Below are positions 39,801-43,231 of a DNA stretch of 64,000 nt, one piece after another (position 1 is the stretch's first letter; the number at the start of each line of letters is the position of its first letter). Origin of the DNA: Perna viridis (taxonomy: Eukaryota); assembly GCA_037379345.1 (NCBI GenBank), contig CM074520.1, positions 18,703,488 to 18,767,487 on the forward strand. The letters run 5' to 3'. The position numbers and the translations under genes are program-made. The notes under the pieces were generated by a model. It did not search any database, had not been told where the DNA came from, and was given only the letters and a program-made list of their open reading frames with translations.

Positions 39801-42452
39801 ATTTTAACCAGTTCATATATCAGCCATAAAATGAATAGGAGCAAAAGACTGGATTTACTTTCGACAGAAAATCAATTCTTTGTGTCTCCTCTTCTGTCTG
39901 TCAATTATGTCTTAACAGTTATAGTAAACTAACAAAGACATAAAAGCAAAAAAAAAAAAACACAAATGGAAGGTAAATATGTATTATGTTTTATATGCCA
40001 ACCAAAATTGCCTCAGACACGTGTTTATTTCTCGTTATATGAAAAATTAATGTGTTAACTTAATAATTTTGAATTTCATGTTTTTTTTTAAATTTTTGGT
40101 TAATTGCACAAATTGATTAAGTAATCGATGCCAAAGAAATTGAAATGACGATTATAAATTTCCCCATTCGTTAAACAAAGCTTAACCAGTTTAAATGTAA
40201 GCCATAAAATGAGTACTACATGGATTAATTTTCGACCAGAAAATCTCCCTATTCCTTACTTGGAGATAAGGGATGTCAAACTGGATTTTCAATTTTGATC
40301 TTAAACATTTAATATATAAGAGTTTAAACTTTTGTAGGATTCTAGAACATGAACATACTCGTGAACATTCACTTTCGAATTAAAAAATATATATATTAAC
40401 GATTCAACAAACAAATTTTATTAATATTTCAAAACAGGCAAATTTGATAGGGTTTTACATTTGTGGCCATGTTATAAAAACTATATCAGATGTTGAAAAT
40501 ATTGCAAAATTTACCTTTTGAAACGACGCATTACTTTTTAAATCTTATGAAACATTATTAAATAAGTATTAATTGCTTAGTGTAACAGTAGCCATTTTCA
40601 AGAAGTATTTTATTCATTCCTTTCGTATTGCAAAATAAGTCAGTTTAGAATTATTGACATAATCTAAACCTTCTTTGTAAGTGTCCAAAAATCATGTTCT
40701 AAGTTATGTTGATGAAGATTTGCAAAAGAAATCTATTTCAAAGCTTATTCAGATTAATCAATATACATGTACATATGTATGCATTACAGTTACACCTGTT
40801 TTTGTGACACCAAAGCATTCAACATTTTACACGCAATTAAAACAACTGCTTATTTGTTTCCTATTTTGCAAAACATATCAAGTATCCGTGTTAATATGAA
40901 ATTGATTGCAGCATCATAAAACATTGCGTTTTAATTTGAAAATGGTTAATTTAATATTACATTTAGAACTAAGCCATATAATTATATAAAGAAGCAAATG
41001 TGATGAAATCACTGTCGTCGAACTACAGTTGCACTCAATGGATAGTTCATCCGAATATACTATACAATAACTGTTAGAGGTACATGTATCTAATGTTGAT
41101 AGTCGGACTAAAATAATGCATTGAACTTTTCAAGAGTAATCAAGGGAACAAATGTTCTAGCAGAAATCAAAAGAATGTAAGTCAGGGACAAATACCAAAG
41201 ATGGAAAACAGAAAAACACAACAAAGAACATAAAGTAACTACAATAATACATGAAAATTAACAAAAGTAAATGAGCAACTCGGACTCCACTAAAAACTGG
41301 GAGAATGGACAAGGTGCATCGGTAGGATAAGCGTCCTCTGCTTTTCTACAGAGACAACCGAGTCAAGAAAATATCATGAAAAAAATTTGTATACAAATTA
41401 ATTGCTTAAAATATACTTTTTTTATATTTCTGTTGTATTTTTAGCTGCATTATTGCAGCCATAACCATGGGTTTGGTTTTATGTCTAACTATGAAAATCA
41501 GTCATAGTTTTTTGTCAAACGTTTTAAAACGTTTTTAAACTAATGATATTTGGCAAAAATGTTGACATCATAATATAATTTTTGTTTCATTTATGGCATT
41601 CGAAAACAAAATTTGATGACACTTGCATCACTTCAATATTAACAAAAATGTCAGCAATAATTCTTCATGTGGCAGGTGTCGCTAAATATAGTCTGTGTAA
41701 TGAGGCGAACTTAATGTCCTCATCCATTGTCCCATTAGGCACGTCGTTCTTCATTACACATTGTATTTGTGATAGTCGGGAAAATATATCTGTTAGCAGA
41801 TACTCAATGGTAGGCATCGGTTCAGTAGATTTGGTTGTACTCAGATTTTAAGAAATTTTACAGTATTCATAGTCATGAACAAGATAATAAACCAATTGCT
41901 AAAAAGCATACAGCGATTGTTTTTTCCCCTGAACATCTCGTATAGTTTGTATGATTTTATCTAGATACGATATGTGTTAGTTTGCGCATACTTATCGCGC
42001 AAGTTTCGAGACATGTTTCGAAATTTTAGTAAAATGTCATCCCATTAGTTCTAGTATAATAAACTTTTCGAGTGTATGTTTTACATATTGACAAACATAA
42101 AGTTCCAATAGATTTCTGTTGACTTTATTAACAGTTTGTGCTTTTTCATTCAAATTTTTTTTTAGATTGTTAATAACATAATTACTAGTATAACCATACT
42201 TCTTAGCACTTTCAATTATTCGATAATGTACATCCACGTGTAAAAAACCTCATTTTTTATCGATACACTTCCAATATCGGAGCATAAGAATTAATATACT
42301 CAATAAGGCTTAAAAAAAGTTAATGATCGTAAAACTTGATTTAACATACCTGCAAAGTATACCATCGTGTTAACTTTCATCGTTACTGCTAATGTCAAAA
42401 ACAAATAAAGCACCATATTTGAGCATTTAGCACGGGCGAATACACTCGCCAT
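12805..42452 (-). CDS. Ionotropic glutamate receptor, AMPA-type (GRIA/GluR-like) subunit A; complete, 17 exons, about 950 aa
   Basis: Exons 42350-42452, 30447-30623, 29605-29844, 29035-29264, 26104-26157, 25448-25612, 23770-23937, 23097-23207, 22396-22521, 21723-21971, 21052-21401, 18196-18394, 17535-17785, 17017-17122, 16476-16610, 15587-15685, 12805-12894 sum to 2853 nt in one frame. Contains signal peptide, ATD, S1 ([15 protein letters not shown]), pore (GALMQQG), [10 protein letters not shown]2 ([13 protein letters not shown]) and M4 ([14 protein letters not shown]). Confidence 0.93.
13040..14000 (+). pseudogene. Possible decayed intronless iGluR ATD copy (iGluR-A last intron)
   Basis: KLLDF/NVDYLI (13134), LVRL../FFKIINREI (13345-13393), LKFLKFDGI (F 13912). 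Confidence 0.4.
14812..15097 (-). mobile_element. Penelope-like 3'-end copy (young)
   Basis: Near-identical to 26533-26850 and 58872-59218. Confidence 0.9.
15587..15685 (-). CDS. iGluR-A exon 16 (C-tail)
   Basis: tttcag| RYRPPVK...MDNSG |gtaata, phase 0. Confidence 0.7.
16476..16610 (-). CDS. iGluR-A exon 15 (M4)
   Basis: [28 protein letters not shown]. Confidence 0.93.
17017..17122 (-). CDS. iGluR-A exon 14 (S2, flip/flop-equivalent)
   Basis: [27 protein letters not shown]. Confidence 0.93.
17535..17785 (-). CDS. iGluR-A exon 13 (S2)
   Basis: YAKMWKYM...YAYLLES...PCNTMKVG. Confidence 0.95.
18196..18394 (-). CDS. iGluR-A exon 12 (M3, S2)
   Basis: [21 protein letters not shown]. Confidence 0.95.
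18830..20000 (+). pseudogene. Decayed intronless iGluR ATD copy (antisense, iGluR-A intron 11)
   Basis: [22 protein letters not shown] (W 19159), [24 protein letters not shown] (19440), LLFDTN..KINI (19845). Confidence 0.55.
21052..21401 (-). CDS. iGluR-A exon 11 (S1, M1, M2)
   Basis: [15 protein letters not shown]...[12 protein letters not shown]. Confidence 0.95.
21723..21971 (-). CDS. iGluR-A exon 10 (S1)
   Basis: SPPFV...YEGYCIEL...[12 protein letters not shown] acceptor. Confidence 0.93.
22396..22521 (-). CDS. iGluR-A exon 9 (ATD-LBD linker)
   Basis: IGDWSP...[10 protein letters not shown]. Confidence 0.9.
23097..23207 (-). CDS. iGluR-A exon 8 (ATD)
   Basis: [24 protein letters not shown] acceptor. 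Confidence 0.9.
23434..23600 (+). mobile_element. Penelope-like 3'-end copy
   Basis: GAGTCCGAGTTGCTCA...GGTTCCCTTGACTACTC. Confidence 0.8.
23770..23937 (-). CDS. iGluR-A exon 7 (ATD)
   Basis: [12 protein letters not shown]...KSMKE. Confidence 0.88.
24063..24792 (+). mobile_element. Non-autonomous Helentron/HINE (pearl/DTC84-like) element
   Basis: Subterminal IR ATACGCCCGT (24090) / ACGGGCTTAT (24778), about 2.5 tandem 157-bp units (24353, 24510, 24668), (GGAC)n tract near 24751. Confidence 0.75.
25448..25612 (-). CDS. iGluR-A exon 6 (ATD)
   Basis: [14 protein letters not shown]; canonical sites. Confidence 0.92.
26104..26157 (-). CDS. iGluR-A exon 5 (ATD)
   Basis: [18 protein letters not shown]; 54 nt as in paralog. 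Confidence 0.88.
26533..26850 (-). mobile_element. Penelope-like 3'-end copy (young)
   Basis: Near-identical family member with intact 13-bp stem. Confidence 0.9.
27750..28900 (+). mobile_element. 5'-truncated non-LTR retrotransposon (CR1/L2-group-like) ORF2 C-terminus
   Basis: [66 protein letters not shown]; frameshifted. Confidence 0.88.
29035..29264 (-). CDS. iGluR-A exon 4 (ATD)
   Basis: LHRIQAIY...RIILDLS; canonical sites. Confidence 0.9.
29605..29844 (-). CDS. iGluR-A exon 3 (ATD)
   Basis: ICSLL...[15 protein letters not shown]; canonical sites. Confidence 0.92.
30447..30623 (-). CDS. iGluR-A exon 2 (ATD)
   Basis: ttgcag|, |gtaaga; [17 protein letters not shown]. Confidence 0.88.
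32608..32671. repeat. (GA)n microsatellite
   Basis: About 32 AG units with one interruption. Confidence 0.97.
34466..34692 (+). mobile_element. Penelope-like 3'-end copy
   Basis: Family consensus match. Confidence 0.88.
34955..35765 (-). mobile_element. Degenerate Penelope-like RT 3' fragment, same family
   Basis: [12 protein letters not shown] (YIDD motif) plus diverged 3' UTR module. Confidence 0.75.
38350..38900 (+). pseudogene. Possible decayed iGluR ATD copy (iGluR-A intron 1)
   Basis: ELEKTVC..VKA*IGPDSS, LNQL..LESRGIS, QIFLS; a possible tail [19 protein letters not shown] near 39630-39700 is too far away unless there is an insertion. Confidence 0.3.
41131..41365 (-). mobile_element. 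Penelope-like 3'-end copy
   Basis: Family consensus match. Confidence 0.85.
42350..42452 (-). CDS. iGluR-A exon 1 (signal peptide [34 protein letters not shown])
   Basis: ATG, hydrophobic core, G|gtatgt phase-1 donor matching exon 2. Confidence 0.75.
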
Positions 42453-43137
42453 CTTTTTCTGGTCAATATTTACTTCTGTTTAATAGTAATTCCACAATGA
42501 TGACTAAAGTGATCAAACCGTTTATCTGCTCATGTTGTTCGATTGGGTGAATTCCATTTAAGAGTAAATTAAATCGTACCAAATAATAAAAATAATTAAT
42601 TGTAGTAAATCACGGTGTCAAAATTTGTACAACCCGCCATCAAAATGGCATTTATATTCCTAGAAGTCTAAATGCATTTTGTAGTGTCTCGGTAATAGAT
42701 TTACAATCCAATAATATAGCTAAATGAGATTACTGAAAATAACATGGTACGTACTGGACAAATCGACCAATAAACATTGTAAATAAAATTGACATTAACC
42801 AATTATTTCCGTTGATCCTGGGATATGATCAGGAACTACGGACGCTTCACACTTAAATCCTTCCTAAAATGTTTTAAATCTATAAATGTGTGTTGTTAAC
42901 TTCTCAGTGGAATTTTCCTTTGGAAAGTAATTAGATTCCGAACTGAGGCAACTTACACCATCAATAAAGAAGCAAGGATGTTATTGACATCAATTTTAAC
43001 TCCATCTTGAAGAGCCCTCAGTAATAGATAGCTAGTGCTGACATGCGCATACAAATTACGTCGTTTTATGAGTAAAATGAAGAATATTTTGGATAAAACG
43101 TGTATTTACAAATAATGGAAGATTTAAAAGCATCAAA
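42453..43137. promoter_or_regulatory. Putative bidirectional promoter and 5' UTRs of the two iGluR genes
   Basis: 685 bp between divergent ATGs. Outward-facing TATAAA at 42651-42656 (-) and 42881-42886 (+), CCAAT at 42708, 42767 and 42799. These motifs have low specificity in AT-rich DNA. Confidence 0.6.
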
Positions 43138-43231
43138 ATGACAAAGAACATGATGAAATCACTTTTGTTAATTATTTACTACTATTTAACAACGTCAAAT
43201 GTGTATGGGATAACCAAGAAAATCAGAATTG
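43138..43231 (+). CDS. iGluR-B exon 1 (signal peptide)
   Basis: [32 protein letters not shown]|gtgagt. Confidence 0.85.

Follow-up and report, generated by a model that had tools for sequence, protein, structure and literature searches.

The genes for GluA1-4, the vertebrate subunits of AMPA-type ionotropic glutamate receptors (iGluRs), are unlinked, and the head-to-head gene arrangement is familiar from other pairs such as COL4A1/COL4A2 and the histones H2A/H2B. Here we describe two AMPA-type iGluR genes, A and B, that stand head-to-head in a 64,000-nucleotide stretch of the Perna viridis genome (contig CM074520.1, positions 18,703,488 to 18,767,487, forward strand), hereafter the window. 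AMPA receptor genes are expanded in lophotrochozoans (PMC6307864; PMC5225553), and spiralian AMPA receptors are described as numerous and little studied, perhaps because they are poorly expressed alone (PMC13520880). The closest functional comparison is Lingula, in which the AMPA receptor subunits g8706, g8707, g16612 and g16613 were all silent alone and only g8707 together with g16613 worked; binding-site mutations hurt more in g8707, the subunit that dominates glutamate sensitivity (PMC13520880). Three of three Hofstenia subunits failed as homomers in the same report, which also describes homomers of mammalian AMPA subunits and, with a transmembrane AMPA receptor regulatory protein (TARP), of a hemichordate subunit (PMC13520880). 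In bidirectional-promoter pairs (PMC4089025), divergent starts lie less than 1 kb apart, and the products are sometimes subunits of one complex. No head-to-head iGluR subunit pair was found in the searched literature, which misses most subscription papers, and none of the ten literature matches listed for functional data on Lym-eGluR and SqGluR names either protein.

Gene A (12805..42452, minus strand) encodes 950 amino acids and gene B (43138..68109, plus strand) encodes 896, each in 17 exons. Both were modelled with a purpose-written spliced aligner against orthologue proteins, A on the Mytilus trossulus protein P0121 with its first exon and stop fixed afterwards; coordinates past 64000 continue the window numbering into the flanks (L-numbered pieces). 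A begins with its ATG at 42452 on the minus strand and B at 43138 on the plus strand, leaving 685 bp between the start codons (42453..43137), exactly as the initial annotation had proposed from the sequence, and the measured spans of 29.6 kb (A) and 25.0 kb (B) agree with its figures of about 30 kb and more than 20 kb. The exons of A lie at 42452-42350, 30623-30447, 29844-29605, 29264-29035, 26157-26104, 25612-25448, 23937-23770, 23207-23097, 22521-22396, 21971-21723, 21401-21052, 18394-18196, 17785-17535, 17122-17017, 16610-16476, 15685-15587 and 12894-12805. Those of B within the window lie at 43138-43231, 45260-45406, 54927-55172, 56461-56657, 56988-57041, 57470-57583, 57962-58123, 58551-58658, 59966-60085, 60974-61192, 61512-61858, 62194-62392 and 62661-62905, and exons 14-17 follow in the adjoining flank L001. 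With no internal stop in either frame and with canonical splice sites, A and B are intact, spliced AMPA-class iGluR genes in head-to-head layout.

The two first exons (coding parts 42350..42452 in A and 43138..43231 in B) face outward and end in phase-1 donors, and each likely encodes a signal peptide, as judged by hydropathy in both cases (hydrophobic core at residues 13-21 in A); the first exon of B aligns to residues 9-38 of P0002. Both had been reported as missing from the open reading frame track, yet they sit within stop-to-stop frames of 59 and 75 amino acids. Homology could not place the first exon of A, for which the aligner chose a false position at 38015; that choice was overruled by an RNA joint to 42350-42452, which skips the 11,726 bp of intron 1 (30624..42349, ends CT..AC). 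Intron 6 of A also contains a tandem repeat (24306-24730; 158-bp unit, 2.7 copies).

The assignment to the AMPA class is consistent across domains, motifs and phylogeny. Pfam families PF01094, PF10613 and PF00060 are found on the orthologues P0121 and P0001, PF01094 also on one window exon of each gene and PF00060 on window exons; together with hydropathy, these matches identify the amino-terminal domain (ATD), ligand-binding domain (LBD), M1/M3/M4 and pore loop of an iGluR. The gate motif SYTANLAAF is exact in A and B, the same 11-residue pore stretch is kept in both, and both carry Q at the pore Q/R site. The best 60 of 333 PDB matches of the A orthologue are all GluA-type or plain ‘glutamate receptor’ (best E=5e-169), and in the tree described below A and B group with vertebrate GluA against three kainate-type rows (100/100). 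Like vertebrate GluA1-4, which form homomers, both genes combine the gate motif with the core glutamate contacts, at 35-39% identity to the vertebrate subunits. These contacts are T480, R485, T655 and E705, in what we take to be GluA2 numbering for them and for the flanking pocket positions. At Y450, P478, S654, T707 and M708, A has F, S, A, P and R, and B has Y, A, T, S and T. The changes Y450F, P478S, S654A, T707P and M708R occur in A and its mytilid orthologues, and scallop A shares the first four. By this comparison the pocket flanks appear to be altered more strongly in A, with milder changes in B. A and B are ordinary members of the AMPA class in an uncommon layout.

Transcript evidence for this layout comes from RNA contigs in six of 24 listed public runs, among which the contigs of X17 are those of X1 and were counted once. 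No run is recorded as RNA, and the RNA nature of the contigs rests on their spliced joints. First-exon joints were scored in four runs at 99% identity, with X1 and X2 belonging to one study and X3 to another. The joint 30623/42350 (CT..AC) of A, proposed in the initial annotation as the junction to look for, was present in X1 and X2, with short sides of 70 and 57 letters, respectively. The joint 43230/45259 (GT..AG) from exon 1 to exon 2 of B was present in X1, and a B exon 1 splice of another sequence type, that of copies 2 and 3 discussed below, in X2. A further contig in X3 ends at 42350 and extends to 42605. The RNA contigs gave no sign of a different first exon for A, the outcome that the initial annotation had named as refuting its proposal, although other first exons are possible in other tissues.

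Contigs carrying the first splices reach 42519 for A and 42954 for B and leave 434 bp, which puts the transcript starts of the two genes within 434 bp of each other, provided that no additional exon lies upstream in either. Divergent orientation and starts less than 1 kb apart, as in known bidirectional pairs, are therefore both found here, with an upstream non-coding exon possible for either gene. Contigs matching the window sequence cover 42350-42605, 42544-42735, 42645-42832, 42688-42898, 42759-42909 and 42954-43230; the stretch 42544-42909 is covered by X1, X2 and X5 combined. Because RNA contigs cover most of the interval while adjoining intron bins have zero depth, a large share of these 685 bp probably belongs to 5' leaders or upstream transcript, and the space for a promoter is likely small. 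No contig of the window type was found over 42910-42953 in X1, X2, X4 and X5, none over exon 3 of A in the runs compared, and nothing at either first exon in X4; at depths of 2-6, these gaps are no evidence of absence.

The same coverage would be expected if the 5' leaders overlapped or abutted and transcription of one gene interfered with that of the other, so that the two were expressed in alternation and not jointly. We consider this very unlikely: the contigs are strandless, none links the middle of the gap to the splice of either gene, and pieces of both A and B occur in the same bulk runs (X1, X2 and X3, as contigs without expression levels). Between copies 1 and 2 of the locus (see below), the interval differs at 31 of 665 sites (4.7%), compared with 750 of 11024 (6.8%) in 15 of the 16 B introns (binomial p=0.014). 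This lower divergence is a modest sign of constraint, and one for which leaders alone could account. CCAAT boxes (four in 685 bp against 1.3 expected, p=0.04) were picked post hoc, all lie in RNA-covered sequence, and were not used. High-copy intronic repeats at 33800-34700, 41130-41310 and 45650-45830 draw thousands of RNA contigs.

Intron phases are identical in A and B at all 16 positions (1,1,1,0,0,0,0,0,0,0,2,0,2,0,0,0), extending the 13 matches listed in the initial annotation, and 15 of the 16 A introns lie within three residues of their B counterparts in the protein alignment. The proteins share 35% identity overall, with 22% in the ATD, which bears out the strong divergence noted earlier for this domain, and 46% over the LBD and transmembrane regions. 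From the phases, an old inverted duplication giving rise to A and B had been proposed. The analysis does not support this. The window lies in a cluster with three further AMPA-class genes, C, Z and D, and A introns 2-14, the range compared (the first exons of C, Z and D are not placed), coincide in alignment column and phase with introns of B, C and Z (13/13 each) and of D (13/13, one off by two residues). The matching introns reflect cluster-wide inheritance and are not special to the A-B pair.

The relationship was examined in an IQ-TREE phylogeny of 35 rows and 853 columns rooted on three kainate-type rows; the rows were taken from an 85-row FastTree set minus near-duplicates and most unnamed rows, and include no named Delta, Phi or NMDA sequences. 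A falls with its orthologues from scallops, clam, unionid and gastropods (98/96) within a clade that holds C, Z and D (98/98), whereas the relatives of B are proteins of scallop, ark shell, squid and whelk (100/99). When the two lineages were constrained to one clade, the log-likelihood fell by 117.6 and the tree was rejected (approximately unbiased test, p-AU 1.3e-12). A and B are therefore not sister copies or the two direct products of one inversion, and the split between their lineages predates the bivalve-gastropod-cephalopod divergence. Some inversion must nevertheless have occurred in the history of the cluster.

The nearest named proteins to the window genes are from Mytilus: A is 70.6% identical to P0121 and B 76.7% to P0001 of Mytilus galloprovincialis. 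Clear A and B orthologues in Mytilus and scallops (P0121, P0001, P0002, P0185, P0157, P0186 and P0158) are annotated as glutamate receptor-like or glutamate receptor-2-like, with consecutive or near-consecutive accessions. Accessions of A and B are consecutive in Mytilus coruscus (CAC5425145/146), Mizuhopecten (OWF38064/063) and Pecten (XP_033743400-401/402-404), and consecutive or near-consecutive in five other Mytilus annotations. The order in which accessions were issued indicates that A and B are adjacent in Mytilus and the two scallops; it carries nothing on strand or distance. Mytilus differs from Perna in having its own B/B' duplication. In oyster, GRIA1 and GRIA1-like both have 17 exons and share a tissue group, and the iGluRs were catalogued with chromosome counts (PMC10642201). 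An assignment of this oyster pair to A and B was not possible; in our trees, the protein from Magallana gigas groups with Z.

The setting of the pair was mapped by a PF00060 search of the 723-Mb assembly (61 matches) and by analysis of 400 kb of flanks, apart from 264-324 kb in the continued numbering. The cluster comprises five paralogous lineages over about 450 kb, in the order Z(-) A(-) | B(+) C(+) D(+), and apart from repeat copies the transcription of the whole cluster diverges from the A-B interval. This composition, with introns shared across all lineages, is what would be expected of a positional relic, in which ancient local duplications and one inversion left A and B with separate back-to-back promoters and no special partnership. 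Such a relic also fits the failure of neighbouring Lingula AMPA receptor genes to form a channel together (PMC13520880), as well as a spliced transcript of a B copy whose A partner is dead (see below). We regard it as rather unlikely, because distances between the remaining neighbours of the cluster range from 8 to >100 kb, as against starts no more than about 430 bp apart in two genes that span 25-30 kb and are rich in introns, and because A-B adjacency persists in scallops.

Our preferred reading, to which we assign a probability of roughly 45%, is that A and B are a head-to-head pair with a shared two-way promoter and co-assembling products, in which B is the core subunit and A a partner. 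Genes from two different deep lineages would be transcribed from one compact promoter and their products made in the same cells, where they would likely co-assemble as a glutamate-gated heterotetramer; B would be the core subunit in wide use, with A among its partners. In favour of this reading we count the close transcript starts, the transcripts of both genes in X1 and X2, the lower divergence of the interval, the adjacency indicated in Mytilus and scallops, the tree positions of the Lingula subunits, the milder pocket changes in B, and the purifying selection on the B copies along with the separate B duplication in Mytilus. That promoter elements are shared is the better founded part of this proposal, and we think it probable. 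A glutamate-gated A/B heteromer with B dominating gating is more tentative, and draws on analogy with Lingula. Because both subunits keep Q at the Q/R site, inward rectification and calcium sensitivity would be expected of such a channel, unless it is edited.

The analogy was examined by placing Lingula proteins in the 35-row tree, where g16613 (P0209) and g8706 (P0227) were matched by their N-termini. The first falls on the A side with C, Z and D (98/98), nearest Z and D (90/78), and the second on the B side (90/81). The working pair of g8707 and g16613 may therefore span the same deep split as B and A, with the B-g8706 side weakly placed. This lineage placement fits a division of roles in which B would be the core subunit and A a partner with a relaxed pocket. 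Both systems are made up of spiralian AMPA-class subunits at adjacent loci, and Lingula has one obligate heteromer across two deep lineages (PMC13520880). The neighbouring Lingula genes appear to be recent sisters without functional pairing (PMC13520880), whereas the neighbours A and B, known here from genes and RNA contigs, come from two deep lineages.

Several observations weigh against our reading. In Lingula, neighbouring genes (as read from gene numbers) gave no joint current and the working pair came from two loci, and one of the two Lingula lineages, by taxon order that of g8706/g8707, is held to be lost from other protostomes (PMC13520880). The link between B and g8706 is unstarred in our tree, a tree with g8706 outside all molluscan AMPA receptors was not rejected (p-AU 0.084), and g8707 itself is absent from the 35 rows. 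B could just as well pair with C, Z or D, and its own pocket, too, differs from that of GluA2 at four of five flanking positions. The first-exon splices come from X1 and X2 only, of four runs, and all run data are strandless bulk contigs at depths of 2-6. A head-to-head neighbour within 1 kb is found for about 10% of eukaryotic genes (PMC4089025), so that spacing alone is not rare.

A further point against it, the loss of extra A copies, emerges from the repeat structure of the locus. The assembly holds three tandem copies of the A-B unit, each of about 60-63 kb: copy 1 occupies 12935..64000 in the window, and two more lie just past it (L001-L013, to ~193,300). Identity is ~92% between copy 1 and the other two, and ~99.3% between copies 2 and 3 over 61 kb; the latter value could reflect a recent duplication or the tandem joining of two haplotypes, and copy 3 may be a haplotype artefact. 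B2 (103315-130395) and B3 (163957-191310) are intact and encode 898 amino acids each. A2 and A3 are broken: exons 3, 5, 9 and 10 are missing, exon 6 is mostly gone, exon 13 has lost half its length, AGG replaces the ATG, and each has five in-frame stops. B1 and B2 differ by a synonymous divergence (dS) of 0.060 with dN/dS of 0.20, and the B copies are under purifying selection. Because B1-B3 fall apart from the Mytilus B/B' pair in the 85-row tree, B was duplicated twice independently, here and in Mytilus.

RNA contigs of the second type agree with this picture. A spliced X2 contig shows seven differences from the window, as B2/B3 do there, with the letters compared in agreement, and an X1 contig over 42379-42569 shows 19 differences, as copy 2 does, with the four listed differences matching. 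A second sequence type of the A-B unit thus exists in public runs too, and the 5' end of the broken A2 (L004:8530-8760) appears to be transcribed. After duplication of the pair, B survived and A decayed, which argues against a strict 1:1 dosage link between them. The amplification of B but not A would also be expected if A and B shared a promoter and were co-expressed with no preferred assembly, B forming a homomer (with TARP) or each pairing with C, Z or D. The three other partners in the cluster and the homomers of mammalian and, with TARP, hemichordate subunits point the same way (PMC13520880). Against this, none of the four Lingula subunits and none of the three from Hofstenia worked as a homomer (PMC13520880), and we judge this combination of a shared promoter with no preferred assembly improbable.

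A stronger version of the preferred reading would make the 685-bp interval the pivot of the whole AMPA cluster, with an obligate pair under one two-way promoter since before the mussel-scallop split, B as a core subunit that dominates gating and belongs to the g8706/g8707 lineage, regarded as lost outside brachiopods, and A as the partner with the remodelled pocket; we consider this unlikely. If the shared promoter holds across bivalves, the pairing of channel subunits would be written into the gene layout; otherwise, this is an ordinary old cluster. The locus singles out one pair for co-expression and predicts the subunit that should dominate gating, a concrete and cheap way to test how molluscan AMPA receptor subunits pair, and the duplicated pair with B kept and A decayed is a natural experiment in asymmetric fate.

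The remaining cluster genes lie in the flanks: Z on the minus strand (L025-L027), C on the plus strand (L017-L018) and D on the plus strand (L036-L038). Z and D each have one extra phase-1 intron and L rather than Q at the first pore position. Among 20 other PF00060 loci (L041-L060) sampled from the 61 matches, best-hit scores were kainate-like for three and clearly AMPA-like for none; all AMPA genes of the genome may therefore lie in this cluster. Elsewhere in the window, a dispersed repeat of ~320-460 bp with many flank copies occurs at 26533-26852, 58874-59218 and 10800-11254. A single open frame of 288 amino acids (5928-6794, plus strand) had no Pfam or PDB match; it resembles ESM Atlas polysaccharide lyase (PF14099) clusters at 0.94, which serves as a lead only.

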